Source: Eledone cirrhosa (Eukaryota). From it: DNA of 64,000 nt. This document shows, in pieces, positions 32,831-64,000 of this stretch. The notes below the pieces were generated by a model, which worked only from the letters and a program-made list of their open reading frames with translations, did not search any database and was not told where the DNA came from. Numbering within the stretch: position 1 is the first letter of the stretch; each line of letters opens with the position of its first letter. The translations under genes and the position numbers were made by a program. Location of the stretch: positions 369,768,001 to 369,832,000 of the forward strand of contig OZ024743.1 of NCBI GenBank assembly GCA_964016885.1. The letters run 5' to 3'.

Positions 32831-33014
32831 ATGAGTCATCATCATCAACTGGAGAATATGTGGAGATAGGGAAGAAACAATCAATCACATAGTCTCTGTG
32901 TGTGTGGCAATTTTGGTGGTCTGTACGTATTTTGTTTCTGTGATGTTGGTGTGGTGTTGAATGTAATTTAAAAGGCTTGTGTTGTCTGTCTATGGCTGTG
33001 TATTGTGTCTGTTG

Positions 33015-38340: not shown

Positions 38341-38546
38341 GTTTTTTTCTCGATAAACATTATTTTTTTTTAACACACAAAGGTTAAATATTTGGGCCGA
38401 AAGGCCCAAATATTATGGGGAGTCCTCTCTTGAGGGCAAAGACTAAAGTCTTATGCCCCTTTTCAAACAAAAAATCAATGACAAAAGGATTTAAACACGT
38501 AGAAATAACAAACTTACTCGAGCTCACGATAGTACGTCCATTCATT

Positions 38547-38820
38547 TCAATGACCAATAATAATTCTTTCTACTTTTGGCACAAGGCCAGTCAATGACCA
38601 ATAATAATTCTTTCTACTTTTGGCACAAGGCCAGTCAATGACCAATAATAATTCTTTCTACTTTTGGCACAAGGCCAGTCAATGACCAATAATAATTCTT
38701 TCTACTTTTGGCACAAGGCCAGTCAATGACCAATAATAATTCTTTCTACTTTTGACACAAGGCCAGTCAATGACCAATAATAATTCTTTCTACTTTTGGC
38801 ACAAGGCCAGTCAATGACCA
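38547..38820. repeat. 44-bp tandem repeat, 6 near-perfect units plus a partial unit
   Basis: TCAATGACCAATAATAATTCTTTCTACTTTTGGCACAAGGCCAG starts at 38547, 38591, 38635, 38679, 38723, 38767 and 38811; one substitution in unit 5. Confidence 0.97.
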
Positions 38821-39014
38821 ATAATAATAATAATGATTTCTAGTATAGGCATAAGGCCAGTAATTTGGGGGGAGGGGAAAGTTGATTAAATCGACCCCAG
38901 TACGTTACTGGTGCTTTATTTTATGGATCCAAAGGACGAAAGGCAAAGTTAACCTCAGCGAGATTTGAACTTAGAACGTAAAGGGATGAAAAGCATGGTG
39001 TCTGACGTTCTACC
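38821..39014 (-). mobile_element. tRNA-derived SINE with (ATT)n tail
   Basis: Sense strand TTCTAAGTTCAAATCTCGCTGAGGTTAACTTTGCCTTTCGTCC ... CTGGCCTTATGCCTATACTAGAAATCATTATTATTATT. Confidence 0.8.
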
Positions 39015-40424: not shown

Positions 40425-40760
40425 GTCTTGCCACCAGAGCGCAGGCTGGTTCTCTCAACGACATATTGAGAAGAAGCCTGGACGCAGCTGGTTTTCCATC
40501 TCAATGAAGCCAGCAGGCCTAAACGGCGGAGATGGCAAGCGATCCGATGAAATCACCCTCTTCCCATCCGAAGGAGGTAGATCCCTCATCTGGGATGCCA
40601 CCAGCTGCGACACGTTCTCCGCCTCCAGCTTGTTGCTTCGGCCACAAATCCCGGCATCGCAGCCCGCCTCGCAGAAGAACGTAAAATAAACAAATATCGA
40701 GGACTGTCCTCTTCGCACCTGTCGCCGTCGAGACCTCAGGGAATGCTATGGCCATATTAA
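40425..40760 (+). pseudogene. CRE-like REL endonuclease fragment
   Basis: PAGLNGGDGKRSDEITLFPSEGGRSLIWDATSCDTF; clearly homologous to 28365-28700. Confidence 0.75.
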
Positions 40761-43700: not shown

Positions 43701-44349
43701 CTGAACGCACTTGTCCAATGTCCGTGTGGAGTTATGTCGAACAGCTATTGTCACGTGTAGAACGGATCCGGCTATCAGCCGAGTCCATAGTGAAGATCGA
43801 CCCACCGCCTTCCTTTGGCCAGAGAGAGCAGGCAATATTCCTCTGTCTGGTGGCAGTTGTGAAAGAGGTTGTATGGTGGACCAGGTTGAAAGGACTGAAG
43901 GCAGGCACTTTTCTCTTCGACCAATCCCTTATCAACTTCTTCAAGTTTCACCTGGAAAGGAAGATGAGGGTGGAGAGAGAAGTGCTTCCCCCCAGTACAT
44001 TTGCATAAAGGTGGATGAATGTGGGGAAAATGGTACGTGTGAGTGGGCCTACTCTGACCATGCGCCTGAAGGTTGGTTAATTTGAGGAGGAGAGGGATGT
44101 CCTCCCCGGGTGCCCTCGAAGCGTCGGGTGGTTCAGGATTGGTGGGGCACCTGAGTCGCCCCTGGGTCGTGCGACACCTCTTTGGGATTTTATTTTGTTA
44201 TGTTTATACATAGTTTATTTTATATTTTCATTGTTAAATTGGTTTTACTATTGTGCACTTTTCTCGAGCTTATTGTAAATCCCCTCTGTCCGTGTCTTTG
44301 TATTGTCCCCTACATTTCGGCTCTTGTGGCCAATAAATGAAATGAAATC
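40748..44349 (+). mobile_element. Tx1-like element E: ORF2-only, divergent subfamily, many stops, short (TGAAA)n tail
   Basis: Starts MAILRVG; EN, RT and C-terminal motifs collinear with element A; distinct 3'UTR ending GGCTCTTGTGGCCAATAAATGAAATGAAAT. Confidence 0.85.
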
Positions 44350-47300
44350 ATACCACCGTAGAGGTACTGTTTGCCACCCTTCAAGAGGCGAAGTCTCACT
44401 CTTTGGTAACCCTAAAGAGTGAGGAGATAGTTTTGGTGCCCTCCTACTGCGGACAGAAGATTGTGAGGGTCAAAGTGACCCAGGTCCCACCCGACGTGTC
44501 CATAGCTTGGTTGGCCGAGTCTGTCCTTGCTGGAATCGAGGACAGGATGAGCACGCTGCAAGAACAGAGAATAGGGAGGGAGAACTGGCCAGGAATGCAA
44601 ATGCTAATCAAAACTGACCAGGAGTGTATCGAGGCTATCCCTAATATTATAGACCTCGAAGAAGGAGTCCAACTCCCTATAAGCATGGAAGGAAGGCGCC
44701 TAAAGTGCTATCTCTGTGGGTCAAAGGGTTACCTCGGCCCTTTTCCCGCAAAAGATAGCAAAGAAAAAGGCCCCCCCCTCCTTCCGAAGCCTGGTCCGCT
44801 GCTACCAAGAGCAAGGCAGTCAACATATGCGTCAGACCCTTCCACGGTGAGTAGGAGGGAAAGGTCCGTGGCACCCATACCAAGGTCACGGACAACTACA
44901 ACGGCGGCAGCAGTAGCGGCAACACCAGTAGCTACACCAGCAACAAAATACCCGGAGAAGGCTATACTACCACCACCAACGGCCGTGGAGCACATACCCC
45001 TCCCAGACGTCACGGAATCCGACATGTTGTATGAGGCGGGAGTGAAGTGGAAAAAGGTCTGCCACAAAAATAAAAGAAAGAACCCCTTAGCTTCACCCTC
45101 CAAAAGCGAGGGCAAACAAAAAGAATAAAGGCTGCAAGGCGACTGGCAGCAACACCACCACCATCACCACCACAAGCAACACCACCAACAACAACCACAC
45201 CATCACCAGCATCACCACAAACCCCAACATCACAAACACAAGGCACACATACCCAACAGCAGCAAGAAGAAAACAGCCCCCCCCCCCACATTACACAGCC
45301 ATAAACATGGCAAATAAAATACCCTTAGAACATATAAAGCAGCACACAGATATTACAGGCAAACATTACTACACCCCACCAACACCAAGAACATTCCCGA
45401 AAAATATAAACATTATTGAAATTAAAATAGAATATTATAAATATTTGAAAGAAAAATTCCCAACGCAGTTGGAGACTTCAGAGGGTCGGTTTCCATGAGG
45501 ATATACACTGACATTATCTTGGAGACACCCATGACCAGCCAAAGGGACGTTTCGACTGTCCGTTTCTCACACGATCAGGGTAAGTGATCCTTTCTAACTT
45601 ACTCCATTCCTCACCCAACATGGCCTTACTTAGAATAGGCAGTATAAATGTACGTGGCCTGGAGTCATCTTGGAAGCAAGGCCACCTGCTTAACGATATC
45701 ACGTCACTAAACATAGATGTGGTGGCTATCAGCGTGACCAGAATTTCCGAAGCCCGAGACTTCGCACCGATCTTCGGCGGCTGCGATGTATACGCTTCTC
45801 CCAGCCGTCCAGGAGCGGGGGGCGGAGTTGCTGTGCTTTTTCGGAGAGGCTTGGATCTCGCCATACGGGCCATCTTCCTGGACCCAGAAGGTAAGTTGGT
45901 GGTGCTGGATTTGACAGGCAGCGAAGGCATTGCTTTCAGGCTAGTAGCCGTCTACGCCCCCACAGGAGCAGGACGGCTAGATTTCTTCGGACGTCTAGAG
46001 ACCTTGCTGGGAATGTCCCGCTCTTTAGTGTTAGTGGGTGACTGGAATAGTATCTTAGATACATGCTGGGATTATGTGGGGATAGTAAATAAGGGAGGAG
46101 GATGTAAAAGCCTCACCAACCTGCTCAGGCATTTTCAACTGTCTGATAGGTATCGACTGGATTATCTGAATGTGCCAATATGGACATGGGTAAATCGCAT
46201 CGTGTCATCCAGATCGTATCTAGATAGGGTATTCTGTAGGGAAACTAGATGAAGCTAGCGTAGGTTGTCCACAATTTAAAGTAGTCGACTACACAGACCA
46301 CAAATTTGTGATCTGTGAAGTCGACGTAGATAGACTTCATAGGCAAGGACCCGGTTACTGGAAGCTGAACGCGTCTTTCCTGTCGCGCAAAGCTTACAGG
46401 GACCGGATAAGCGAATTAGTTAAGCGTGCGTTGACGGGTGCGATCGTCAACAACAGCTGGTGGTTTACCCTGAAAAAGGGCAATTAGAATAGAATCGATA
46501 AGGTTTAGCAAAGGAGTAGTGATAGAGGAAAATAGAGTAGGAGAGCTAGTTAGAAAGCTAGAAGAGGCGTTTAGGACAGACATCGCAACCGACGTGCTTG
46601 CGGCGAGATTGGCTCTCGACCAATTCTTCAACGCAAAGCACGAAGGCTGCGTTGTCAGAGCTAGAGCGCGCGCTCTGAAATACGAGGGGACAAAAGGTAT
46701 CCAATGGGCCCGGGTAGTGGAGGCGCGACGTGGCAACAAAGCCACAATTCAATCCTTTCCTGACCAAAACGGGCGCATGTTACCTCGAACCCGAGCAGAT
46801 GTGTGAGGCTTTTCAGCAGCACTTTGCTCTACTGTTTGGGAGCGGCGGCGGACCAGATCGGAGTATGAACTTCAGTGCATACCTCGAGGGACTGCCGCAG
46901 CTCGCAACAACTGCAGCGCAGTATTCCGAAAAGCCGATAACAGCAGGTGAAATACGAGAAGCGATGTCTGACTGCACGAGGGGTAAATCGCCTGGTTTGG
47001 ATGGTCTGCCCTACGAGCTTTATGCGTACATGCCAGACTTGTTCGGCGACCGCTTGGCTGATGTCTCCTGCAACTGGCAGCAAAACAGGAGCATTCCCAG
47101 TTTTGTGAGCCGGGGAGCGGTGGCGCTGCTGAGAAAAGACACGAACAAGGGGGACGTTATAGAGGACTTCAGGCCCATAACCCTGTTAAACGCAGATTTC
47201 TAGATTTTGGCCAAGGTGTTAGCAACGAGATTGGCGCTTGTCGTAGGTGATTTGGTGGGAGAGGCACAGACATGCGCCATTCCAGACAGATCAAGCCAGG

Positions 47301-48390
47301 ACAACCTCTACCTCATGCGATAAATCATAGAGAGGGTGGTTAAGGAACCTGGCGCGGGTGGGGCCCTGAATAACTCGGATCCATCTAAGGCATTTGATAG
47401 GGTCGACCATCGGTACCTGGCGGCAGTCCTCGAGGCGGCCGGTTTCAGGCCCATTTACAGGAGTTGGATCGCTGCGATGCACAGCGAGATCTGCTCAGTT
47501 GTGAAGGTGAAAGGTCATCTAACACAGCTGTTCAGCATCATGCGCTCGGTCCACCAGGGTTGTCCCCTCTCGTCGCTCTTGTACGTATTGGCCCTAGAGC
47601 CGTTACTGCACAAATTGGAGGCGATGAGAGGCGTCCCACGCGAACTGGGATGTGGGAGATCCGTATCGGCTTACGCCGACGACGTCACCGTGGTGGTGTC
47701 AAGAACCGGACATGTCCAGATGCTCGGCACTGCTCTCAAGGAATATGAAGTAGTGACAGGAGAAAAGCTAAACCAGGAAAAGTCGCTGGGCTTGCAGCTC
47801 AGCACCTGGAGAGGCAAGTCCATGCCGCCTGACAGCGTCGTGGGGCGCTGGACGGAAGGACCGGTTAAGGAGGAGAAAGGGCAGGCAGTTTTCATCTGCC
47901 TGGTGGCTATGGCGAAAGAGATTATATGGTGGACAAGGTTGAAAGGATTGAAGACGGATACTTTCCTCTTCGGCGAATCCCTAATTAACTTTTTCAAATT
48001 GCATTGAAGAGGAAAATCAGGGTGGAGGAGCAAGTGCTGTCTTGTTTGTTGAACGGTGGGTGAAAGTGGCGAATCTGGTCCTAGTGAACCGGCCCGTTCT
48101 GAGTATGCGCCTGTAGACTGAGGGATGGGAGAACTGAGAGAGGGTGCTTGCCTTGGTGTTCAGGGTGGCCGTGTTCTTTTGCGTGGTTTTCACCACGAGT
48201 GACCCTCGGAGGTTCCCCCCTCCCCCCACTGGGGAATTATTGTTGTTTGAATTTTTTTAATTTATTTTTATACATTTCTCTCTTCTTGTTATAACCTTTT
48301 TACACGGCCCAAACCAACTTTGTATCGTCCTGTACCGTTCCGTGCCATCTGTAATGTTTTTCTTCCTGTTAGCCAATAAAGAAACCATTA
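44350..48390 (+). mobile_element. Tx1-like element D: 5'-truncated within ORF1, ORF2 (ATG 45620) with internal deletion
   Basis: ORF1 remnant LVPSYCGQ..CYLCGSKG; EN ORF 45584-46252; RT with YADD; GPVK joined directly to GQAVF at about 47870; ends AATAAAGAAACCATTA. Confidence 0.88.
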
Positions 48391-48538
48391 CGGCCCTTGC
48401 CATTCTGAGTTCAAATCCCGCCGAGGTTAACTTTGCCTTTCATCCTTACGGGGTCGATAAAATAAAGTACCAGTAATGTACTGGGTAATTGCTGGCCTTG
48501 TGCCAAAAGTAGAAACAATTATTATTATTATTATTATT
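48391..48538 (+). mobile_element. tRNA-derived SINE (B box to tail) ending in (ATT)n
   Basis: TTCTGAGTTCAAATCCCGCCGAGGTTAACTTTGCCTTTCATCCTTACGGGGTCGATAAAATAAAGTACCAG ... TGGCCTTGTGCCAAAAGTAGAAACA(ATT)n. Confidence 0.85.
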
Positions 48539-49694
48539 GTTCTTTGAGTCTCAGTCATTGATGTTAGTTAACTGGAAAGTTTGTTGAAATGAATATTAAG
48601 CCACTACCTGCAGCCTCAGATATTCAGGACGTATCGCAGGGTTCTTGCTGTTCCCAGCAAGCATGCCTTTTGAAGCGTTCCAAAAAGCGTGAAGGGGCCA
48701 ATTTTCTTTAACCATCCCTGGAAACTTTTTGAGATAGTACCTAGTGCGCCTATGACAATCGGGATCACTTTGACTTCATGGCAGTTCCAAATCTTTTTTA
48801 CCTCCCACTTTAAGTCCTGGTATCGGTTAATTTTCTCCCTCTCCTTCTCTTGCACTCTCGTGTCGAATGGGCAGGTTACATCCACAATCAGGCACGATCT
48901 TTTTTCTTTGTCCAAAACCACCAGGTCAGGTCTATTGTGTTCCAGTTTCTTGTCCGTCTGTATCCTAAAATCCCACAGCACCTTCACCTGATCGTTTGCT
49001 ATCACCGCCTCTGGCTTATGCTCATACCACTTCTCAGAATGTGGTAAATTGTTTACTTTGCATAGGTGCCAGTGTATCACCCTGCCCATCACATCATGTC
49101 TCCAGCCCTTATAGTGAGTCTGGGCTAGGTGTTTACACTCGGATACAATGTGAGCCACAGTCTCCTCTCTCTCTCCACAGATCCTGCACAGTGGGCTAGC
49201 CTCCTCCTTGTAAATGTGGTGTTTCAACCACTTCGTTTTGAGGGCCTGCTCCTGCGCAGCCATTAACATTCCTTCTGTAGCCTTTTTAAGGTCTCCTCTT
49301 TTCAACCAGTTCCATGTCAGTGGATCTCTAAATTCAGTTTTCTCAAAGAAGGTACTATGAAGGGATTTTTCCTGAAGGCTGCTCTTTCTCCTTGATGTTA
49401 TTTCCTCCTTGGACATCCCCTGGCCTATTGTCCCCTCCTTCAGTACAGTTCTGAGCATTGGCTCCTTACTATCAGTCACGTATTTGTGTAGGTTGTTTTT
49501 CTCCATCTGAACACAGTCCTCTATGCTGATAAGACCTCTTCCACCCTCAGATCTCCTTAAGTAGAGTCTATCGACATCACTCCTCTTGTGGAAGATATTG
49601 TAGATAGTCAATAGCTTCCTAGTCTTCCTATCCATTTCTTTTTGTTCAGCAACATTCCATCTCAGAATTCCCGCACTGGACCTAATAATAGACA

Positions 49695-49695
<1 letters not shown>
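48539..49695 (-). mobile_element. Dong/R4-clade element 1, 5'-truncated, intact C-terminal frame (CCHC finger + restriction-like endonuclease)
   Basis: RLYLRRSEGGRGL, CRICGEREETVAHIVSEC, RHD, HNRPDLVV, IVDVTCP, EKINRYQDL, PIVIGALG; flanked on both sides by (TAA)n in element sense. Confidence 0.92.
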
Positions 49696-49729
<34 letters not shown>

Positions 49730-49730
<1 letters not shown>

Positions 49731-51849
49731 AGTTGCATTTATCTTGCTTTATGTTCATACGAGTTATCACCAAGTCACAACCAGTCACCTCAAGAGACAA
49801 CAAGGTCCGCCATGTTCAAGAAAGAACATACATACTCACACATGCATCTTTAGTGTTTAGACTTGTGATGTACTTATATTGACAGAATCTTCCTTAGTAT
49901 ATGGGCAGTTCCCATTAGTACTATCTTTTGTATTTCTCCTATACGCGGGTTTCCTGGGATTTGCGATAAGTAATCATTAGATCCCTTAGGTATCATTCCC
50001 AGAGCGCCTACAACCACTGGTATTGTTTTAGTTCTCAATTTCCACATTTTTCCAATTTCTATCTCCAGGTCCTTATACTTGCTCAATTTTTCAAATGTTT
50101 TTATAGATACATTCTTGTCTATTGGAACAGACATATCAATTAGCAGGCATACCCTCTTTTTAAAGTCCTTCAATATTATATCAGGTCTATTTGCATCTAT
50201 TTTTCGGTCTGTTTGGATGCTAAAGTTCCACAAGATTGAGATGTGATCTTTTTCAAGTATGGGAGGTGGTTGATGCTCCCACCAATTCTTTTGATGGGGC
50301 AGGTCAAAATGTTTACACATTATCCAATGTATGTATTGTGCAGCTCTGTCATGCCTGTTTAGGTATTCGGTTGGAGCTATAGGACTACACATTGAAATTA
50401 TATGGTCAATGGTCTCTGGTTGTTTTTTGCATACACGGCATAATGGGCTGCATCCATTTTTTATTATGTTGGCTTGGTAATTTTTTGTTGGCAGACACTG
50501 ATCTTGTGCTGATATAATCAGTCCTTCAGTCTCCGATTTCAGTCCAGAGGATGCCAACCACTGATGGGTTAAAGTTTTGTCAACATAAGGATTGTTAGCT
50601 CGCTCTGGGTATTTTCCATACAGAGGCTTTTCTTGCCATTTCTTAGCCAGTTTCTGTAGCAGTTCTTTCTTTGCAGTTACTTTTACCTGCTTTGCTTTTT
50701 CTGTGTTTTCCATTTCAGCAGTAAATGGGACTTCTGAAATTTGTAGTCCATTACTGTATCTTTGTGCATCTTTTGTAATGGAATATGATCTTTTGATGCT
50801 TTCGTGTTTCAAAACGAGTTTGATCATCCAATCATGTGATTCCCTTAGATATGTAGATAATCCAATTGTTGCAGTTTTCAACGCAATGTCTAACTGGATT
50901 AACCCACGTCCTCCTTCTTTCCTAGGGAGATATATTCTATCTATATCTGCCTTAGGGTGATGCATTCTGTGCATGGTTAAGAATTTTCGAATTTTTGTAT
51001 CGAGCCTACGGATCTCTGTGCTTGACCAGTTGATGACATTGTAACTGTAGGTTACTACTGGTATGGCAAGCGTGTTTATGGCATCGATCCTATTCCTTGC
51101 ATTCAATTCCGTTCTTAAGATTGCTCTTACTCTGCGGTAACATTCCTTCCTTATCCTTTCCCTCATTGTCGAGTGCTTGATTCCGTCTCCTTCACAAACA
51201 CCTAGATATTTGTAAGTTTTTTCTTGATCAAGTTCTCTTATCACGTTCCCCCGATCAAGATTAATGTCTGAACTCTTCAGCAGCTTTCCTCTGGTGAACG
51301 TTGCTTTGGCGCATTTTAATGTCATCACTGAACTGCTCCACAGTGGATAATAGCCCTAGCAATTGTTCATCATTTTTTGCAAATAGTTTCAGGTCATCCA
51401 TGTAGAACAACTGATTAATGGTTTTGTCATAGACTTTATATCCATGTTTTGTTTCATTGAGCATTTTACTTAATGGTATAAGTGCGATGCAGAATAAAAG
51501 CGGTGATAAAGAGTCACCCTGAAAAATTCCACAATTAATATTAACTTCTCCAGCTTCCAGTGATTTTGTTTCACTATTCAAAAGGAGTGTCGTTTTCCAT
51601 GTCTTCATACTGAATGACAAAAACCTCCTGACAACGGGGGATATTTTGAAAATCTCTAAACATTTTTCAATCCAACTGTGTGGCAAACTATCGAATGCTT
51701 TTTTATAATCTATCCAAGCAATCGATAGATTTTTGTGTCTATTATGACAATCTTCCAGTATCATTTTGTTAACCAGAAGCTGATCCTTACACCCTTTCTG
51801 CTCAATGGGAAATAGGTCATTTGTTATCAGGTGGTCATATGTGTATTCA

Positions 51850-51850
<1 letters not shown>
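49730..51850 (-). mobile_element. Dong/R4-clade element 2, 5'-truncated (RT + CCHC + REL), one frameshifting deletion
   Basis: [28 protein letters not shown] (ORF 51261-51764); CRVCKKQPETIDHIISMC, RHD, ANRPDIIL, KLSKYKDL (ORF 49874-51328); flanked by (TAA)n. Confidence 0.92.
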
Positions 51851-51885
<35 letters not shown>

Positions 51886-52094
51886 GGCGACCTACGTAGG
51901 AAATCGTATTATCGTGAGCTCCGCAAAGGTTTGTTATTTCCGTTTGTTTAAAAATTGCCATTTATGGAAAATTTTATTGTTAACTGTTTATAAGCACACA
52001 TACATTGTTTTCCGAAAAGGACACCTAAAAAGATTGGGGCCTTGTGCCCAAAATTTTAACTTTTATTATTATCCAAAAATTTCTTTGAAAAAAA

Positions 52095-54053
52095 ATGGCT
52101 ACTTCACCTCTGCACGAAGCAGCTGAAAGCCTTCCTCACAAAATAACACCTCACACCGACACCACCATTGTAAATGTTACTACGTTTGCCAACACAAAAA
52201 AAAATATAAGCAGTAACAATATTTTAAATTTGTCTCAGGCAGACATTCATTTCCCGCCATTACCAATGACTGCAGGTGTTAAAGCCTCCACCACCACCAC
52301 CACCGCGACAACAGAAACAAAAGAAGAAAAAAATAAATTAACTCGTGATGTCGAAATGAAATCAAGCAAAATGGACTCTTCCCCACCAAAGACGACTGAC
52401 GTCACCACCACCACAACTGAAAATAAAATTAATATTAACGATAGCAACAACAACAACAATGACATTATAACCCCCCCCCCCCAGTTTCGCCAGAGTAGCA
52501 AAACAATTCGAAGCATTTACCGTAACTCAAGAAGATTTAGAAAATGCCAAACAAATGGTAAAGAAAGATGGGTACAGGGTCAGCCTCACCCCCCCACCTA
52601 ATAAAATGGAGCATCGGCGCCTATGCACCGTGTCGTATAGAACAATAAATGTAAAATCGCGCCGAGTGGAACGGGCATCCGAGTCCCAAATCCAAAAAGC
52701 TTTGGGACATGTGTGGGCAAGAAAAACCCACATCAGACGTGGGCAAAAGTATGGAACCGTGGATGTGTTCTTTGAAACACCAGAGGAGGCTAGAGAACAC
52801 TCCATGGCCCCATTAAAAAGTGACGACTTTACACTCGTCCCAAGCTATTGTGGCCAGAGACTCGTAAAGATAAGGGTGACCCACGTTCCACCGGCCATCG
52901 AAATTCCCTGGCTAATAGCGGCTGTCCTCGCCGGCATCGAGGCCAACACGAAAATAATAACAATAGCAAAAGAAAAGCAGGAAAACTGGTCCGGATCTGG
53001 GATGGAGCTCCTGATCCAAGCGGACCAAAAAAGCATTGAGGAGATCCCAGAGGTAATAGACCTCACTGACGGCAGCCACCTCACGGTAATTGTCGAGGGC
53101 AGAAGACCTAGGTGTGTCGTTTGTGGTGAAGGAACCCACCTAAGGGCTTTCTGCCCTCAGGCTAAAAGGTTGAGGCCACCTCTCCTACCCACCCCAGTGA
53201 CACAACCATCAACACCACCAGTAGCAGAGATGGCAGCAACAACTGTAGCAGCAACAACAGAAGCAACTATAACAGCAACAACCCCAGCAACAGTAGCAAA
53301 ACCAACACCACTACCACCACCAGCAAAACCAACACCACCACCACCCAACGCTTCAGAACTAGCACCAGCGCCTACACCATCCACCACACCACAACCAAAA
53401 CTAACGGCTGTGGAGGATTTTCCACTCCCCGGCCTATCACAACTGGAGACAGATTGTGACGACGAGGAGTGGGAAACGATATCCGGAAAAAAAAAAGAAA
53501 CCAAAACAGAAAAAATTCTCTTCCTTCCCCCTCCAAAAACAAAATACAGAGGGAAACAAATAAACTAAGAAACAAAAAAGTTAGGACAGATATGCCACCA
53601 TCCACACCAGCATCACCAACCCCATCAACCCAAACACCAACACCATCACCATCATTAACTCCAACACCACCATCACCTACACCACAAAAGTCACCAAAAT
53701 GCGAAACAGAAACAAACCCACAACAAACGCAAACAAAGCAAAACAACCAAAACGATACACACTACACAGCATTAAATTTGAACAACAAGCAATTATTGCA
53801 CTACATCCAACACAACACCAGCATCACAGAAAAAGACTACACAACAACCCCAAAATTCAAACCACCTCCACACATACAAATCACTCGCATCACACAGAAA
53901 ACGTACATGACACTAAAATAAAAATTCCCCAAAGACATCGGAGACTTCCGACAAGCACTCTGCAGGAGGATTTATAAGGACATCCTTCCTGAGGAGGCCA
54001 CAAGCAGTGAAAAGGATGGAAAAACCGTCCTTCCCCTACGAGAAGTAAGGTAA
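52095..54053 (+). pseudogene. Element A ORF1 (gag-like; RRM-like + CCHC knuckle), broken by homopolymer frameshifts and one stop
   Basis: ORFs 52095-52601, 52555-53568 (VEGRRPRCVVCGEGTHLRAFC) and 53469-53921; the frame continues past TAA 53919 to ..LREVR-TAA at 54053. Confidence 0.85.
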
Positions 54054-54087
54054 GTGGTCTTTCCCATCTTTTCCACTCCTTTTCAAC

Positions 54088-57000
54088 ATGAACTCACTCA
54101 GAATAGGCAGCATAAATGCGCGTGGCTTGGGGTCGTCATGGAAGCAGGGCCACCTGCTCAACGACCTCAGGTCACTAAACATAGATGTAGTGGCCATCAG
54201 CGAGACCAGAATCTCCGAAGCACAGGCTTTCGCACCGATCTTCGGCGGCTACGATGTGTACGCATCTCCCAGCCGTCCGGGATCGGGGGGAGGAGTTGCT
54301 GTGCTTTTTCGGAGAGGTTTGGATCTTGCCATACGGGCCATCTTCATGGACCCAGAAGGTAAGTTGGTGGTGCTGGACGTGACCAGCGGAGACGGGCAAG
54401 CTTTCAGGTTAGTGGCCGTCTATGTCCCGACAGGAGCAGGGCGGCCTGATTTCTTCCGGCGTCTGGAGACCTTTCTTGGAACGTCCCGCTCTTTAGTGTT
54501 AGTGGGCGACTGGAACGGGATCTTAGATGCACGCTGGGATTGTGTGGGATTAGTGGATAGGGAAGGAGGGTGCAAGAGTCTCACCAACCTGCTCAGACGT
54601 TTTGAACTGTCTGACAGGTACCGAATGGATTTCCCGAGGTACCAATGTGGACTTGGACAAATCGCATAGGGTCATCCAGATCATATCTAGATAGAGTATT
54701 TTGTAGGGAAATAGATAGGTCTAGCATAGGCTGTCCACAATTCAAGATAGTCAGCTACACGGACCACAAATTCGTGATCTGTGTGCTTGACAGGCTTCAT
54801 AGACGAGGACACGGCTACTGGAAGCTAAACGCGTCCTTACCAGCGCGCAAGGCCTACAGAGACCGGATTAGCGAACTAGTTAAGCGGGCGTTGACGGGGG
54901 CCATCGTCAACAACAAGTGGTGGTTTGCTCTGAAAAGAGCAATTAGAATAGAGTCCATTAGGTTTAGTAAGACTTTAGCAATAGAGAAAAATAGAGCAGA
55001 GGGAGAATTAGTTAGAAAATTAGAGGAGGCGCTTAGCAAAGGCATCGCGACCGACGTACTTGCGGCGAAATTGGCCCTTGACCAATTCTTCAATGCAAAG
55101 CACGAAGGCTGCGTTGTCAGAGCTAGGGTGCGTGCTCTCAGACACGAGGGTACGAAAGCCGTTCAATGGGCCCGAGTGGCGGAGGCGCGTCGTGGCAACA
55201 AAGCCACGATCCGGTCTTTGGTGGACCACGACGGGCGCATGCTACTCGATCCCAGGCAAATGTGTGAAGCTTTTCAGCGACACTTCGCTCAACTGTTCGG
55301 GGGCAGTGGCGGGCCGGATCGAGGGATGGACTTTAGTGTCTACCTCGACGGACTGCCGCGGCTTTCGGCCACTGAGGCGGAGTGTTGCGAAAAGCCGATA
55401 ACAACCGCTGAAGTACGGGATGCAATGACTAGTTGCACAAGGGGTAAATCGCCTGGTTTGGATGGTCTGCCCTATGAACTTTACGTACAAATGCCAAACT
55501 TGTTCGGAGGCCTCTTGGCGGACGTCTACTGCAACTGGCAACAGAACGGGAGAATTCCCAGCTCTGTGAGCCGAGGAGCGGTGGCGCTGCTGAGAAAGGA
55601 TCCGAACAAGAGGGATAACATAGATAATTTTAGGCCCATAACTCTGCTAAACACAGAGTTCAAGATTTTGGCCAAGGTGCTAGCAAAGAGGTTGGCGCTT
55701 GTCGTTGGTGGTCTGGTGGGAGAGGCACAGACATGCGCCATTCCCGACAGATCCATCCACGACAACCTCCACCTCATGCGATACATCGTAGAGAGGGTAG
55801 CTAGGGAACCTGGCACGGGTCAATTTAGATCAGTCGAAAGCCTTCGATAGGGTCGACCATCGTTACCTAGCGGCAGTCCTGAGGGCGGCTGGCTTTGGGC
55901 CCGTCTTCAGAGGCTGGATCGCTGCCATGCACAGCGACATCTGCTCTGTAGTGAGAGTGAACGGTCACCTGTCGGAACCGTTCAACATCATGCGCTCGGT
56001 CCCCTCTCGTCCCTATTGTGCGTATTGACTCTCGAGCCATTACTGCACAAACTGGAGGCGTTGAGGGGGGTCGCGCGCGAACTAGGATGCGGAAGATCCG
56101 TGTCAGCATATGCGGACGATGTCACCGTAGTGGTGTCGAACGCCAAACACATCGAGGCGATCGGCACTACACTAAGAGAATACGAAGCGGTGACAGGAGC
56201 AATGATCAACCAGGAAAAGTCAGTGGGGCTGCAGCTCGGCACCTGGAGAGGCAGGTCCATGCCGTCCAACAGCGTCGTCGGGCGCTGGACGGACGGACCG
56301 ATTAAATTGCTAGGGGTCTGGTTCGGTCCGGACCTCCAGACGGACAAAAACTGGGACGAGGTGACGAGCAGGGTGGTTTCTCTCACCCAGAAATGGGCCG
56401 AGAGGAAGCTATCCCTGAAAGGTCGAGCGGAGGTGGCGAATGCGTACATCGCATCCGTCATCTACTACCGCCTGACCGTCGTACCTTGTCCTAAGCCCCG
56501 CCTGACTGCGCTGGAGCGTTTGCTCTTTCGCTTCTTGTGGAAGGGACGCGCTCCGATGGTCAGGCGGTCCATCTGCTGTCAACACCCGCTACGTGGAGGG
56601 CTGGGCATGCCGTGGCTGATGATGCGCAGACACGCGCTCAGGCTACGACATCTCCACCTCTTCCTCGACGGTGATCAGGTGTGGTCGCCGTTTGCAAGAC
56701 ACGTTTTTCCCCAACTCGTCTCCTTGACGGAGCTGCAGTCCTGGGTCAAGCGAAGACCGAGAGGGAGCGCTTGGAGACTGGAATGTCTTCAGGCGCTCAC
56801 AGCCCTCGACCAATCGGGCAATGTGATCGGTGGAAACTCCACCTTGGCGTTCTATAGGGGATTAGTGGAGGGGAAGAGCGACGACGTACTTGGAGAAACT
56901 CTAGGCGTCGACGAAAATCAACTAGCCAATCTCTTCGGAAGGATTTTCGGGCCGGGGCCTATGGACAACTTCCAGAAATCCCTGGCCTGGCAGTGCTACC

Positions 57001-57475
57001 GAGGAGCTTTGCCAGTTCGGGATAAACTCTACAGGCATGGAGGTGCCGTCAGCCGGGCATGTCCGAGATGCGCGCAGGGCGACGAAACCGTCCTGCACGC
57101 ACTCGTCCAGTGTCCGAGCATGCTGACTTGTGGGTTTATGTCGAACACCTGCTGTCACGTGTAGGACGGATCCAGCTATCAGCTGAGTCCATCGTGAGGA
57201 TTGCCCCGCCCCCTTCCTTTAGCCTGGAAGGGCAGGCAGTTTTTATCTGTCTGGTGGCCATGGCGAAAGAGATAGTATGGTGGACACGTTTGAAAGGGCT
57301 GAAGACGAGCACTTACCTCTTCGGTGATGCCCCGATTAACTTTTTCAAATTTCATTTGAAAAGGAAAATCAGGGTAGAGAGGGAAGTGCTCTCTTCCCAG
57401 CATTTTGTTGAAAGATGGGTGAGAGAAGCAAGTATGGCCCGAATGAATGGGCCTTCTCTGAGTATGTGTCTGTAA
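54088..57475 (+). pseudogene. Element A ORF2: APE endonuclease, RT and C-terminal CCHC (Tx1/L1 type), about 4 frameshifts
   Basis: SINARGL, ISETR, GDWN, YLDR, TDH; FRPITLLN, AFDRV, YADD; GGLGMP; CPRCAQGDETVLHALVQCP. Confidence 0.92.
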
Positions 57476-57736
57476 ATTAAAGGTGGAAAACTGGGAGAGG
57501 GCACTTGCCCTGGTGGTCAGGGCCACTGTGGTCTTTTAATGGGCTTTCTCCACAAATGTCCCTTGGAAGTCTCCCCCCTATTGGGGAATTTTTCTTTGTT
57601 ATTTTATTTCAACCTCTGTTTTTTTACACGCAGAAATGCCCATTTGTACCGTCCTGTATTGTCCTCTACTGTCCTTAATGTCTACTTTATGTGAACCCTT
57701 GTGGTTAATAAAGAAAACATTATTATTATTATTATA

Positions 57737-57769
<33 letters not shown>

Positions 57770-60700
57770 GAATGCTATGGTTGACGGAGGCTCGGCTCTG
57801 TAAGGTATTGTAAATTTTGACCGATATAACAATTGTAAATTGTTTAAAATTTTAACCAACTTGTAGACAAAAACACCCTCCTCCTCGTGAGAGGGGTGTT
57901 TCTGCCCGTTATTTGGCCCTTCGGGGTTAAATAACTGCTTATTGGGGTTTTGTGCCCAATATTTATTTTAAACAATAAAACAACATGGCTACGAAAAAGA
58001 ATTTTCATAGGTCACTCCCACTCATTCCGTCTTCTTCTTCCTCAATCGTCACTACAGCAGAGAGAAGATTGTCTCTCTCCCTCCCTTCTCTTTCGCAAGA
58101 GACGACAGAAAAGAAAAATCTCGTGCAAAGCGTGCAAGATTTCTCCACGACGACAACGACGAAACAGGTGTGCGGGAAATACGAAAACCCATTTTATTCG
58201 TCTGACGTCAGGAATAATAGCAGTAGCAGCCGTAATAACAACAGCAACAGTGACAATGAAAACAACAGTAGCAGCCGCAACAGCATTAGCAGCAGCAACA
58301 ACAACAACAACCACAGCAACAGCGGCGGCGGCAGTAGTCGTAGTACCTGCAGCAACAACAAAAGTGACAGCAGCTCTGACGACAACAACAACAACAACAG
58401 CAGCAAAGAAAAACCAATCTCGTTTGCAGGTATCGCAAAGAACCTGGAAACCATCCTCATAACAAATGAGGAATTAGAGGAAGCGAAGAAGATGGTGACA
58501 AAAACTGGACACCGAGCAATCTGCAAGGCAGCGGAATAATTTTTCGAAACCCAACAGCACTGTACGGTCACGTACCGTACAGTAAGTACAAAATCCCATA
58601 GGGTTGAAAGAGCCACAGAGGATGACCCCTTCTTGGCTGGCCGTGTCTGTCCTCGTCGGAATCGAGGACAAAACAACTGTACTGCAAGTACAGAAAAAAG
58701 TAAGAGAAGATTGGGTCGGCACCTCCATTGAGATGTTAATCCAAACCAACCAGGAGTGCATCGAAGCTATCCCGGATGTGATAGACTTCGATAACGGCAC
58801 TCAATTGCCCATAAGTGTTGAGGGCAAACGCTCGAAATGCTTTCGCTGTGGATCGAAGACTCACCTCAGGGCCTTCTGCAACGAGAAGACCCTGAGAAAG
58901 GAGAAAACCCCCCTCCTTCCGAAACCGGCTCCACGGCTACCAGCAACAGGACAAGCGGCAACCAGGAACGATAGGTCCGTGGCACCCGTACCCACGCCAC
59001 GGAAATCAAAAACAGCAGCAGCAGTGGAAGTATTAACAACAACAACAACAGCAATACCAAATACAGTTGCAACAGAGACTCCAGTGCAAACATCACCAAC
59101 AACAACAAGTGAAAGAGTGGAGTTGGTACCCCTCCCCGACCTCACAGAATCAGACATGGAGTGTGAGGTGGGAGAGGGATGGCAAAAGGTCGTAAGAAGG
59201 CACAAACGCAGAAGCAGTGCATCGTCGCCTTCGAAAAGGGAGGAAAGAAATGAAAAAAGGGTAAAGGCTACTGCAAAGAGACTCACAGCAGCAACTCCAC
59301 CAACACCATCACCACCCACACTAGCACCACCATCACCAGCGGCGACAACCCCACCGCCAACAACAACAACACCTTCAACACCACCACCACAAGCACCAAC
59401 ATCGCAAACACAACAACAAAACACACACACCCAGCAACAACGACAAGAAAATAGCAGAACCACACCCCACCCCCAGAAAAACAAATGCACGGCAATAAAT
59501 ACACACAACAAGAAACTAATGACTTACATAATTGAACACTCATACATTTCACAACACGACTACATAATACCAGCACCAATCAAAACGCCAACTAACATAA
59601 GACTGCTAAAAATAGCACAGAAACAATACACAAACATTAAAACGAAATTCCCCAACGCAGTTGATGATTTCAGAGACCTAGGGGGACACTCAACCGAAGA
59701 GTATATTCGGACATACTCATAGAAGAGCCGACGACCAGCCGAAGGGACGATTCAACGGTCCCTTCACCAGACGATCAAGTGAAAAGGGATGGAAAAACCA
59801 TCCCTCCATTACGAAAAGTACGGTAAGTGGTCTTTCCCATCTTTTCCACTCTATTTTAAACATGACCTCACTCAGAATAGGCAGCATAAATGCGCGTGGC
59901 TTGGGGTCGTCATGGAAGTAGGGTCACCTGCTCAACGACCTCAGGTCACTAAACATAGATGTAGTGGCCATCAGCGAGACCAGAATCTCCGAAGCACGGG
60001 CCTTCGCACCGATCTTCGGCGGCTACGATGTGTACGCATCTCCCAGCCGTCCGGCATCGGGGGGTGTAGTTGCTGTGCTTTTTCGGAGAGGTTTGGATCT
60101 CGCCATACGGGCCATCTTCCTGGACCCAGAGGGTAAGTTGGTGGTGCTGGACGTGACCAGCGGAGACGGGCAAGCTTTCAGGTTAGTGGCCGTCTATGCC
60201 CCGACAGGAGCAGGGCGGCCTGATTTCTTCCGGTGTCTGGAGACCTTTCTTGGAACGTCCCGCTCTTTAGTGTTAGTGGGCGACTGGAACGGGATCTTAG
60301 ATGCACGCTGGGACTCTGTGGGATTAGCGGATAGGGCTGGGGGGTGCAAGAGCCTCACCAACCTGCTCAGGCGTTTTGAACTGTCTGACAGGTACCGATT
60401 GGATTTCCCGAATGTACCAATGTGGACTTGAATAAATCGCATAGGGTCATCCAGATCATATCTAGATAGAGTATTTTGTAGGGAAATAGATAGGTCTAGC
60501 ATAGGCTGTCCACAATTCAAGATAGTCAGCTACACGGACCACAAATGCATGATCTGTGTGCTTGACTTAGAAAGGCTTCATAGACGAGGACTCGGCTACT
60601 GGAAGCTAAACAGCCGCTGAAGTACAGGAGGCAATGACTGGCTGCACAAGGGGTAAATCGCCTGGTTTGGATGGTCTACCCTATGAACTTTACGTACAGA

Positions 60701-62955
60701 TGCCAGACTTGTTCGGAGGCCTCTTGGCGGACGTCTACTGCAACTGGCAACAGAACGGAAGAATTCCCAGTTCTGTGAGCCGAGGAGCGGTGGCACTGCT
60801 GAGAAAGGATCCGAACAAGGAGGATAACAGATAATTTCAGGCCCATAACTCTGCTAAACACAGAGTTCAAGATTTTGGCCAAGGTGCTAGCAAAGAGGTT
60901 GGCGCTTGTCGTTGATGGTCTGGTGGGAGAGGCGCAGATATGCGCCATTCCCCACAGATCCATCCACGACAACCTCCACCTCATGCGATACATCGTAGAG
61001 AGGGTAGCTAGGGAACCTGGCACGGATGGGTCCTTGATCAATTTAGATCAGTCGAAAGCTTTCGATAGGGTCGACCATCGTTACCTAGCGGCAGTCCTGA
61101 GGGCGGCTGGCTTTGGGCCCGTCTTCAGAGGCTGGATCGCTGACATGCACAGCGACATCTGCTTTGTGGTGAGAGTGAACGGTCACCTTTCGGAACCGTT
61201 CAACATAATGCGCTCGGTCCGCCAAGGATGTCCCCTCTCGTCCCTCTTGTACGTATTGACTCTCGAGCCATTACTGCACAAACTGGAGACGTTGAGGGGC
61301 GTCCCGCGCGAACAAGGATGCGGAAGATCCGTGTCAGCATATGCGGACGATGTCACCGTAGTGGTGTCGAACGCCAAACACATCGAGGCGATCGGCACTA
61401 CACTAAGTGAATACGAAGCGGTGACAGGAGCAATGATCAACCAGGAAAAGTCAGTGGGCCTGCAGCTCGGCACCTGGAGAGGCAAGTCCATGCCGTCCAA
61501 CAGCGTCGTCGGACGCTGGACGGACGGACCGGTTAAATTGCTAGGTGTCTGGTTCGGTCCGGACCTCCAGACGGACAAAAACTGGGACGAGGTGACGAGC
61601 AGGGTGGCTTCTCTGACCCAGAAATGGGCGGAGAGGAAGCTATCCCTGAAAGGTCGAGCAGAGGTGGCTAACGCGTACATCGCGTCTGTCATCTGCTACC
61701 GCCTGACCGTCGTACCTTGTCCTAAGCCTCGCCTGACTGGGCTGGAGCGTTTACTCTTTCGCTTTTTGTGGAAGGGACGTGCTCCGATGGTCAGGCGGTC
61801 CATCTGTTGTCAACACCCGCTACGTGGAGGGCTGGGCATGCCGTGGCTGATGATGCACAGGCACGCGCTCAGGCTACGACATCTCCACCTCTTCCTCGAC
61901 GGTGATCAGGTGTGGTCGCCGTTTTCTAAACACGTATTTCCCCAGCTCGTTTCCTTGACGGAGCTGCAGTCCTGGGTCAAGCGAAGACCGAGAAGGAGCG
62001 CCTGGAGACTGGAATGTCTTCAGGCGCTCACAGCCCTCGACCAATCGGGCAATGTGATCGGTGGAAACTCCACCTTGGCGTTCTATAGAGGATTAGTGGA
62101 GGGGAAGAGCGACGACGTACTTGGGGAAACTCTAGGCGTCGACGAAAATCAACTAGCCAATCTCTTCAGAAGAACTTTCGGGCCAGGGCCTATGGACAAC
62201 TTCCAGAAATCTCTGACCTGGCAGTGCTACCGAGGAGCCTTGCCAGTTCGGGATAAACTCTACAGGCATGGAGGTGCCGTCAGCCGGGCATGTCCGAGAT
62301 GCGCGCAGGGCGACGAAACCGTCCTGCACGCACTCGTCCAGTGTCCGAAAATTGCTGACTTGTGGGTTTATGTCGAACACCTGCTGTCACGTGTAGGAGG
62401 ATCCAGCTATGAGCTGAGTCCATCGTGAGGATTGCCCCGCCCTCTTCCTTTAGCCGGGAAGGGCAGGCAGTTTTTATCTGTCTGGTGGCCATGGCGAAAG
62501 AGATAGTATGGTGGACACGTTTGAAAGGGCTGAAGACGAGCACTTACCTCTTCGGTGATGCCCTGATTAACTTTTTCAAATTTCATTTGAAAAGGAAAAT
62601 CAGAGTAGAGAGGGAAGTGCTCTCTTCCCAGAATTTTGTTGAAAGATGGGTGAGAGAAGCAAGAATGGCCCGAGTGAATGGGCCTACTCTGAGTATATAT
62701 CTGTAAATTAAAGGTGGAAAACTGGGAGAGGGCACTTGCCTTGGTGGTCAGGGTCACTGTGGCCTTTTACTGGGCTTTCTCCACAAATGTCCCTCCGAAG
62801 TCTCCCCCCTATTGGGGAATTTTTCATTGTTATTTTTTTGTTACATCCTCTGTTTTTGTATTTGACACGCAGAAATGCCCATTTGTATCGTACTGTATTG
62901 TCCTGCACTGTCCTTAATGTCTACTTTATGTAAACCCTTGTGGTTAATAAAGAAA

Positions 62956-63008
<53 letters not shown>
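57770..63008 (+). mobile_element. Tx1-like element B: different 5'UTR/ORF1, ORF2 nearly the same as A, internal deletions, (ATT)n tail
   Basis: ORF1 ATG 57985 with CFRCGSKTHLRAFC; ORF2 ATG 59862; ~570-nt deletion at about 60611; 517-aa RT/CCHC frame 60875-62428; tail 62958-63008. Confidence 0.92.
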
Positions 63009-64000
63009 GGCGACCTACGTAGTAAAACGTATCATCGTGAGCTCCGCAAAGGTTTGTTATTTCCGTTTGTTAAAAATTGCCATTTATGGAAAATTTTTAT
63101 TGTTAACTATATATAAGCGCACATACATTGTTTTCCGAAAAGGACACCCAAAAAGATTGGGGCCTTGTGCCCAAAATTTAAACTTTTATGATTATCAAAA
63201 AATTTCTTTGAAAAAAAAATGGCTAATTCACCACTGCACCAAGCAGCTGAAAGCCTTTCTCACAAATTAATACCTCACACCGACACCACCATTGTAAATG
63301 ATACTACGTCTGCCAACACACATAATTTAAGCACTAGCAATATTTTAAATTTGTCTCAGGCAGACATTCATTTCCCGCTATTACCAATGACTGCAGGTGT
63401 TAAAGCCCCCCCCCCCCACCACCACCACCACCACCACCGCGACAACAGAAACAAAAGGAAAAAATAAATCAACTCGTGATGTCGAAATATTTTCAACCAA
63501 AATGGACTCTCTCAACACGAACTTCACTGACGTCACCACCACCACAACTGAAACTAAAATTAATAATAACAAAAATAACGATAGCAACAACAACAACAAT
63601 GACATTAAAAAAACCACCCTGAGTTTTGCCAGAGTAGCAAAACAGTGCGAAGCATATACGGTAACTCAGGAGGAATTAGAAAATGCCAAACAAATGGTAA
63701 AGAAAGATGGGTACAGGGTCAGCCCCCCCACCACACACCTAATAAAATGGAGCATCGTCGCCTATGCACCGTGTCGTATCGAACAATAAATGTAGAATCG
63801 CGCCGAGTGGAACGGGCATCCGAGTCCCAAATCCAAAAAGCTTTGGGACATGTGTGGGCAAGAAAAACCCACATCAGTCGTAGGCAGAAGTATGGAACCG
63901 TGGACGTGTTCTTTGAAACACCAGAGGAGGCTAGAGAACACTCCATGGCCCCATTAAGAAGTGACGACTTTACACTCGTCCCAAGCTATTGTGGCCAGAG
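63009..64000 (+). mobile_element. Tx1-like element C: 5' part, same subfamily as A, runs off the window
   Basis: Collinear with 51886-52860 (5'UTR, MANSPLH.., KKDGYRVS, KYGTVDVFF). Confidence 0.92.

Follow-up and report, generated by a model that had tools for sequence, protein, structure and literature searches.

How one (ATT)n tract came to hold retrotransposons of two kinds in opposite orientations is the question raised by a stretch of Eledone cirrhosa DNA (GCA_964016885.1, OZ024743.1:369,768,001-369,832,000, forward strand, 64,000 nt), which we refer to in full as the window. From a SINE onward, the order is (ATT)n, Dong1 (minus), (ATT)n, Dong2 (minus), (ATT)n, and Tx1 copies A, B, and C (plus), again separated by tracts. 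A reading made from the sequence only had reported this array, and it is real, with its five tracts placed at 48518, 49696, 51851, 57719, and 62958. The extent it gave holds from the SINE onward but fails at the left limit, where two older Tx1-lineage copies (ends 44349 and 48386) precede. The window array is one case of a genome-wide pattern, and we consider it probable that the whole is explained by a young APE-type Tx1 inserting at ATT sites throughout the genome, with Dong using these sites from the other strand and Tx1 likely mobilizing a SINE. The features of the window are as follows.

33010..38834, minus: separate Tx1 copy whose 5' module is of a third kind and whose head lies on an ATT tract that follows a SINE 3' end
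40760..44349 (start approximate), plus: older, decayed Tx1-lineage copy, ~71% identical to copy A
44352..48386, plus: 5'-truncated Tx1-lineage copy with an internal deletion, ~81% identical to copy A over ORF2
48390..48517, plus: 5'-truncated SINE
48518..48538, plus: (ATT)7 tract
48539..49695, minus: Dong/R4-like element of family 1 (Dong1), 5'-truncated, with CCHC and restriction-like nuclease end
49696..49729, plus: (ATT)11 tract
49730..51850, minus: Dong/R4-like element of family 2 (Dong2), 5'-truncated, one frameshift, with RT, CCHC, and restriction-like nuclease
51851..51885, plus: (ATT)11 tract
51886..57718, plus: Tx1 copy A, complete in length but broken by frameshifts, carrying 5' module A
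from 52095, plus: ORF1 of copy A, with CCHC knuckle
54088-57475, plus: ORF2 of copy A, with APE, RT, and zf-RVT
57719..57769, plus: (ATT)17 tract, one unit interrupted
57770..62957, plus: Tx1 copy B, 5' UTR and ORF1 unlike A, internal deletion near 60610
62958..63008, plus: (ATT)17 tract
63009..64000, plus: Tx1 copy C, full length, A-type head, running 4,872 bases beyond the window

At the left edge, the older copy ends at 44349 and is followed by AT and then by the 5'-truncated copy; a single ATT separates the end of the latter, at 48386, from the SINE. Outside the window, the 3' end of copy C leads into (ATT)15, a truncated SINE, and another Tx1 head. The head junction of the separate minus-strand copy recurs 6.4 times, as a 44-bp unit (38547-38828).

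By domain content the plus-strand elements are LINEs of the Tx1 group, equipped with an APE endonuclease, and in protein searches they score nearer to Tx1 than to mammalian L1. Their ORF2 matches the Pfam domains Exo_endo_phos (APE), RVT_1, and zf-RVT, and a phmmer search gave 309-322 bits to three proteins named TX1/YTX2 (the names being automatic annotations), compared with 178 bits for human L1 ORF2p. The ORF1 of copies A and B encodes a CCHC zinc knuckle (Cx2Cx4Hx4C, read from translations), and no Pfam family was matched by ORF1. Copies A and B are 35% identical in ORF1 protein and 94% identical over ORF2 and the 3' UTR. At least nine 5' modules occur. The Eledone genome contains thousands of young copies; one natural copy (P0001) has an intact ORF2 of 1,139 aa with the APE and RT catalytic motifs kept. 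A search of a protein-cluster atlas returned generic EN/RT clusters only, no curated Tx1, Kibi, Koshi, or Keno reference came up in the searches, and the metagenome matches listed (80 distant and fragmentary loci, best-segment identity 24-45%) contained no run of at least four ATT units. Pieces of the Tx1 5' and 3' ends were matched in four sequencing runs (organisms A-D), in a comparison that skipped the ATT tract; no RNA run was among the matching runs listed.

The minus-strand elements we take to be members of the Dong/R4 clade, going by motifs and target; no named Dong reference was among the Dong protein matches, and a PDB search with the Dong protein gave no match. Dong1 and Dong2 represent two families (35% identical in protein), both ending in a CCHC and a PD..D restriction-like nuclease motif read from translations. 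Dong elements have a single ORF with RT, CCHC, and a PD-(D/E)xK-type nuclease and no APE by motif reading, and the 105 longer relatives among the matches listed carry RVT_1, with an APE family in none of them. On these assignments, two unrelated nuclease types, APE and restriction-like, meet on one dispersed repeat.

Tx1 is found with the same repeat at both ends and on a fixed strand, the truncated copies being less strict. In exact whole-genome counts, 2,104 of 2,315 intact A-type 5' ends come after four or more perfect ATT units, always in the same phase, and 5,003 of 6,468 Tx1 3' ends continue into (ATT)4 or more, with fewer than four perfect units after the other 1,465. Because in 400 kb of control background just 1.5e-4 of positions follow at least four ATT units and 6.5e-5 at least six, a chance origin of this pattern is excluded. 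These counts bear out the (ATT)n-specific APE-type Tx1 family proposed earlier, the 5' flanks of most intact A-type copies being ATT. (ATT)6 precedes 2,094 A-type heads when the head motif used for counting is shortened by 4 bases; the base before the head is not T in 10 of 2,315 cases, and all ten still lie on an ATT tract.

A sample of 40 Tx1 copies, taken in chromosomal order, was read for neighbours and junctions. Every intact head, 25 in total with 13 of A type and 12 of B type, lies on a tract, and full-length, phase-exact insertions make up 25/40 of the sample; elsewhere, two of 30 B heads (L071 and L075) were first unparsed, and L071 lies on a tract. Truncated copies, with their independent breakpoints, sit directly on a tract in 6 of 15 cases, with further cases in another sample, and 8 of the 15 non-intact copies are without a clean upstream ATT tract (five with none, two on (TTC)n, one imperfect). 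Downstream, the neighbour is a Dong 3' end for 16 of the 40 copies and a Tx1 head for 8. All 28 sampled intact Dong 3' ends adjoin ATT on the strand opposite to Tx1, with the Dong sense strand reading (TAA)n, as it also does at the 5' truncation junctions. The earlier suggestion of a niche common to Tx1 and Dong in opposite orientations is thus upheld by both sets of junctions.

Tx1 3' ends join at ATTAT, on a single strand and in a single phase, with a preference for long pure tracts; judging from the sequence, the Tx1 endonuclease would likely nick the AAT strand and prime reverse transcription there. In truncated copies at imperfect sites, the 3' ends of both Tx1 and SINE abut a 7-19 bp target duplication beginning with ATTAT, and no tail is added (seen also at L126). 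Such a duplication starts from the 3' junction in 7 of 19 interrupted copies in one sample and in 7 clear plus 2 weak cases of 19 in a second; in each sample, roughly half of these copies, if not more, show none. Paralogous empty sites were sought among the sampled loci, and none was usable.

On the 5' side, intact ends adjoin (ATT)n, always in one phase and nearly always with at least six upstream units, so that the RNA may carry part of the tract. We suggest that the RNA would have its start within the tract upstream and that its cDNA would pair with the target, by analogy with what has been proposed for R2 elements with uniform junctions. This step alone could instead be replaced by a phase-fixed second cut, in which sequence-specific cleavage of the ATT strand about six units away gives an all-ATT duplication and the RNA starts from the first G, with no upstream repeat in it. 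In its favour, tracts have a floor near six units on both sides (fewer than five units in 3 of 139 5' ends and 8 of 96 3' ends; Fisher p 0.054), which also fits a fixed duplication; the intact copy L301 has a 9-bp duplication including a variant unit; and 7 of the 9 head types start with G. However, four intact copies (L236, L270, L271, and L277) combine a long 5' tract with a 3' side of one or two ATT units and then unrelated, unduplicated sequence, and the duplications at truncated copies are not multiples of three in length. We regard the second cut as a serious contender, somewhat short of an even chance, and retain pairing of the cDNA as the preferred account.

The SINE (185 nt in a full natural copy, with tRNA-type A and B boxes recognized by eye) resembles Tx1 in site, strand, phase, junction motif, and duplication size. 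ATTAT follows its 3' end in 13 of 17 control copies and 53 of 66 others, over a background of 0.2%, and a script called a duplication starting at the junction in 6 of 25 control SINEs; one SINE (L243) lies in Dong orientation. The last 35 nt of the SINE, a short stretch, are similar to three older Tx1 ends (shuffle p ~0.003, among nine comparisons) and to one further Tx1 end (p 0.028), the similarity to the young A and B families not being significant (p 0.10); the same test gave no similarity to Dong (p 0.28 and 0.98) or to a CR1-like element (p 0.6). A resemblance between the Tx1 5' UTR hairpin and the SINE 3' end was set aside, as the heads share the hairpin stem and not its sequence. From these sequence comparisons, the SINE is probably a co-colonist mobilized by Tx1, and it would be this ATT-site Tx1 lineage that acts in trans. 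Another LINE could drive it instead, the site being common by convergence, which would alter this last step and no other. Beside several Tx1 heads lies a CR1-like LINE that likewise terminates in (ATT)n, making it a possible further source of tracts, and the SINE is less strict than Tx1 on tract length; against this stand the dissimilarity of the SINE 3' end to the CR1-like element and to Dong, its similarity to older Tx1 ends, and the junction motif and duplication size that it has in common with Tx1. We therefore lean away from a CR1-like driver and toward Tx1.

It had further been proposed that Tx1 regenerates its target with each tail and that SINE tails seed the arrays. This would require Tx1 and SINE RNAs to encode (ATT)n tails, which we think unlikely. 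Perfect runs beside young copies have medians of 10 and 16.5 units (26 parsed of 39), 3' tracts being longer than 5' tracts. Control tracts are mostly shorter, at 4-8 units, and the excess may include some added repeat or later expansion; SINE 3' ends host 8 of the 28 sampled Dong 3' junctions, and about half of 20 control tracts, read by eye, touch a Tx1, SINE, or Dong end. Nevertheless, the tail-free joins at imperfect sites, L126 included, and the one or two downstream ATT units of most control SINEs argue against an encoded tail. The ATT "tails" of Tx1 and SINE need not be encoded; the joins point to renewal of the target by duplication or splitting of the tract, and make the SINE look like a co-colonist and not the seed that had been supposed.

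The likely route of array growth is that target remains to either side of every insertion, so that later Tx1, Dong, and SINE copies would land next to earlier ones. The head-to-tail, same-strand Tx1 arrays described before are supported: 31 of 99 neighbours lie within 15 kb where 2.7 are expected, and 30 of the 31 are on the same strand. At another locus, an adjacent Tx1 pair is identical at 350/350 positions, indicating that tandem duplication makes some arrays, and L274 was dropped as proof of RNA-borne 5' repeats, the locus being a tandem duplicate. In spite of this precedent, segmental duplication or misassembly of the window array, an origin that the sequence-only reading had asked to be checked, can be dismissed as highly improbable, since copies A, B, and C are mutually just 94.2, 96.0, and 95.7% identical with private indels, A and B carry different 5' modules, and many other loci hold similar arrays that differ in composition.

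A more far-reaching and doubtful proposal is that Tx1 uses the ATT tract as one of its functional parts, transcription starting about six units upstream in the host microsatellite and the RNA carrying those units as a homology arm, that Tx1 drives the abundant octopus SINE, and that Tx1 and Dong renew each other's target. If true, the homology arm would explain why insertions are mostly full-length and phase-exact, whichever of the nine or more exchangeable 5' modules they carry. The high share of such insertions makes the 5'-joining step testable and may interest builders of site-directed insertion tools. AAT/ATT microsatellite markers in these animals would often be transposon junctions. (ATT)n would be an addition to the targets of Tx1 endonucleases, and thousands of young copies and intact ORF2s offer a system in which to study how a 3-base repeat is recognized by an APE nuclease, such recognition being "not well understood" (PMC3812793).

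Each component of this system has been published before: Tx1 specific for microsatellites, Dong on TAA, and SINEs driven by Tx1. A literature search, with Repbase and Dfam outside it, found no ATT-specific Tx1, and we did not find (ATT)n reported as a target for the Tx1 group. Kibi in (TC)n, Koshi in (TTC)n, and crocodilian families in (TTCC)n/(TTTC)n (PMC4494074, PMC3812793) are likewise Tx1-group APE LINEs in microsatellites, and Fig. 3 of PMC4494074 lists further targets. The present family differs in its (ATT)n target, in having young copies by the thousand and nine or more 5' modules, and in sharing tracts with Dong. Dong elements on (TAA)n include the snail DongBg (PMC3812793), and Dong-R4 and L1-Tx1 are among the recently active elements of Octopus vulgaris (PMC13282606). 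With its RT, C-terminal restriction-like nuclease, and sense-strand (TAA)n at both ends, Dong itself offers nothing new; here, two families occupy tracts in common with Tx1. Crocodilian Tx1-Mar and SINEU have a common target and tandem insertions, from which trans-mobilization was inferred (PMC4494074). Our SINE, too, occupies a site targeted by Tx1 and is found in tandem insertions, but its head is tRNA-type, it lacks poly(A), the site is a microsatellite, and its 3' end bears a short resemblance to that of Tx1. R2 RNA keeps upstream target sequence, and uniform full-length 5' junctions, as found here, have been explained by cDNA pairing (PMC3774820, PMC6895275). R2 uses an HDV-like ribozyme, whereas an Rfam scan of 38000-64000, which covers Tx1 heads and no Dong head, detected none, and neither did our own descriptor, run without a positive control, in two full-length Dong heads. 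TRAS and SART, both APE-type and of the R1 clade, insert in opposite orientations into the (TTAGG)n telomeric repeats. Here too one repeat is common to two families in opposite orientations, but APE elements are paired with restriction-like nuclease elements, and on dispersed microsatellites instead of telomeres.

Re-inspection of the window (G000:C4:369768001-369832000, within a 3.0-Gb assembly) confirmed the array described in the sequence-only reading as a whole, with the five (ATT)n tracts and the elements between them at the positions first reported.

Elements of the window array
48390-48517, SINE (short tRNA-type element)
48539-49695, minus strand, Dong1
49730-51850, minus strand, Dong2
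51886-57718, plus strand, Tx1 copy A
57770-62957, plus strand, Tx1 copy B
from 63009, plus strand, Tx1 copy C
48518, 49696, 51851, 57719 and 62958, (ATT)n tracts

Dong1 and Dong2 are 35% identical, and both are 5'-truncated and retain a C terminus with CCHC and a PD..D nuclease motif; their putative assignment to Dong is based on motifs, single-ORF relatives, and the (TAA)n rule. The plus-strand elements encode a CCHC knuckle in ORF1 and APE, RT, and zf-RVT domains in ORF2. Among named relatives, the Tx1 protein is closest to one from Argonauta hians (73% identity), which makes an octopod host probable. An intact natural ORF2 of 1,139 aa matches proteins with TX1/YTX2 annotations at 309-322 bits, versus 178 for human L1 ORF2p. 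Open ORF2 frames of at least 1,150 codons number at least 20 in the sampled stretches, with some loci represented twice. Copy C is complete past the window end, where (ATT)15 leads on to a truncated SINE and a further Tx1 head (element 5' end); two older Tx1-lineage copies lie upstream of the window SINE. Because the shared part of ORF2 is 94.2% (A-B), 96.0% (A-C), and 95.7% (B-C) identical, and copies A and B differ in 5' UTR and ORF1 (35% protein identity), the array was not copied from one unit, which argues against the segmental duplication considered in the earlier reading.

Of 40 A-head matches, the best 30 are all preceded by 6-25 perfect ATT units in one phase, and 28 of 30 B-head loci could be parsed, all 28 on tracts. 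Exact whole-genome motif counts were used to remove the sampling bias of such best-match lists: four perfect ATT units precede 2,104 of the 2,315 A-heads and follow 5,003 of the 6,468 Tx1 3' motifs, against a background of 1.5e-4 of positions preceded by four units across 40 control stretches, 10 kb each. With the head motif shortened by four bases, 2,094 are preceded by six units; a non-T base stands directly before 10 of the 2,315 A-heads, all of which still end a tract. Non-ATT 5' flanks are not the rule for full-length copies: in a 40-copy sample taken among the first 50 places listed on another contig, C1, all 25 intact heads lie on tracts. The other 15 comprise six with a tract directly upstream, one intact head with an internal deletion, one imperfect tract, two preceded by (TTC)n, and five without ATT. 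In older Tx1 families, too, the target rule holds at the 3' end (8/8 and 8/9). This Tx1 family is thus almost certainly specific for ATT, with support about as strong as sequence alone allows. Junctions of Tx1 as well as of Dong repeatedly show compound (TTC)n(ATT)n tracts (loci L251, L253, L270, L110, L086, L200, and L032), and an element associated with (TTC)n may be active too.

Tx1 was originally proposed to regenerate its own target with each tail. Copies for the tail test were chosen by a Tx1 3' end followed by ATTAT and a non-T base, a combination found at 147 of the 6,468 motifs. The first set of 30 loci held 19 copies with an interruption inside 1.5 kb, seven of which showed a duplication of 9-16 bp starting exactly at the 3' junction. 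The second set (40 longer stretches, 8 overlapping the first and 1 left out for its orientation) held 19 truncated copies with seven clear and two weak target duplications of 7-19 bp, and 20 of 20 intact heads on tracts, one of just three units. Target duplication was not found in the remaining interrupted or truncated copies of either set. As the duplication begins exactly at the 3' junction, an added tail is not required, and target duplication rather than a self-made tail probably accounts for ATT at Tx1 3' ends. Tracts adjoining young Tx1 copies are longer than control tracts; possibly part of the repeat was added, or expanded later, at young copies. Some Tx1 insertions comprise just 14-44 bases of the 3' end, some with target duplications (L145, L192, L279, L284, L305, and L309).

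Intact heads join their tracts in a single phase, and truncated copies show duplications of any length. Fewer than six upstream units, allowing single-base changes, were found in 5 of 139 intact heads, and four intact copies have a long tract on the 5' side and only one or two units on the 3' side. For R2, PMC3774820 and PMC6895275 associate uniform 5' junctions with RNA that retains upstream target and pairs with the target. The single-phase Tx1 heads fit such a model, and we give about an even chance to a Tx1 RNA that would carry upstream ATT and pair in this way. Alternatively, the fixed 5' phase could come from a phase-fixed second cut, a tentative explanation that fits nearly as well as RNA pairing because 3' tracts have a similar floor in unit number (fewer than five units in 8/96, vs. 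3/139 at 5' tracts; p 0.054). The L1 endonuclease cuts at T-A steps, and cuts at such steps are compatible with both junction phases.

At least nine Tx1 head types are preceded by ATT tracts; seven start with G, and a hairpin ahead of ORF1 is common to all eight types checked.

Differing Tx1 5' modules
51886, plus strand, window copy A
57770, plus strand, window copy B
38546, minus strand, window copy at 33010-38546
L106, L180, L244, L298, L037, L036, L130, sampled loci

ORF2 is 92-96% identical among the three window head types; that A, B, and the minus-strand copy carry different 5' modules on nearly the same ORF2 suggests repeated 5' UTR/ORF1 exchange among Tx1 copies. At 33010-36375 (minus), rearranged ORF2 pieces from more than one Tx1 copy are interleaved downstream of the third-module head, and directly at the 5' junction of this minus-strand copy (38547-38828) stands a 44-bp unit repeated 6.4 times in tandem, composed of a SINE 3' end, (ATT)3, and the first nine bases of a Tx1 head. 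Comparison of the first 50 bases revealed a GCTCC..GTAAG-like motif, similar to a splice donor, about 40 bases into both Tx1 and full-length Dong heads, and a second donor-like site lies just 5' of ORF2 at window position 54049. Three heads have what we take to be a DPE-like motif at +10, with the predicted start 18 bases upstream, within the tract.

The head-to-tail Tx1 arrays and the tracts common to Dong and Tx1, both anticipated from the window, recur across the genome. Among the first 100 listed C1 places, 31 of 99 neighbours lie less than 15 kb apart, against 2.7 expected; 30 of these 31 are on the same strand, compared with 32 of 64 more than 25 kb apart. In the 40-copy C1 sample, the next element downstream is a Dong 3' end for 16 copies, a Tx1 head for 8, and a SINE for 2. 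Of 30 Dong loci taken from 34 matches, 28 have an intact 3' end, and all 28 adjoin ATT on the opposite strand; their neighbours include eight SINE ends and three Tx1 ends plus one 14-base end, counts that are rough since no more than 31 candidates were scored. ATT tracts also adjoin Dong copies with widely varying truncation points. An array longer than that of the window, with five Tx1 3' ends on one strand 6-7 kb apart, occupies G000:C1:55423678-55449631. At L274, two adjacent B copies are identical over 350/350 bases with a duplicated flank, reflecting either tandem duplication or an assembly artefact. A CR1-like LINE with (ATT)n after its 3' end lies upstream of several Tx1 heads (L262, L009, L087, L097, and L124) and is a possible further source of tracts; L097 and L262 may be duplicates of each other, having both flanks in common.

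The suggestion that SINE tails seeded the arrays gives way to a SINE that is probably a Tx1 client. ATTAT directly follows 13 of 17 control SINE 3' ends (0.2% by chance), 16 of 17 with up to one mismatch (2.9% by chance), and 53 of 66 SINE ends at other loci. Most control SINEs have just one or two ATT units behind the 3' end, and a script called duplications of 8-18 bp from the junction in 6 of 25; the SINE within a Tx1 5' UTR at L126 has a 15-bp duplication and no tail. The last 35 nt of the SINE align with older Tx1 family ends at p about 0.003 (three comparisons) and 0.028 (one), and not significantly with Tx1 A or B (0.10), Dong (0.28, 0.98), or the CR1-like element (0.6). A common target is the main argument for the mobilisation of SINEU by Tx1-Mar in PMC4494074.

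An ATT-specific Tx1 or Tx1-Dong sharing was not found in the literature searched, including passages of PMC4494074, PMC4640811, PMC3812793, PMC3747384, PMC4758252, and PMC10294476; the likeliest prior records (Repbase, Dfam, and Kojima and Fujiwara 2004) were outside its scope. For O. vulgaris, Table 1 of PMC13282606 counts 1,129 insertions of Dong-R4 and 421 of L1-Tx1 as recent; the passages covered do not contain the word "target". The ATT target and its three-way sharing by Tx1, Dong, and SINE thus appear unreported in the literature searched. Every ingredient of the system has precedent, and TRAS and SART offer the comparison for two families on one repeat in opposite orientations.
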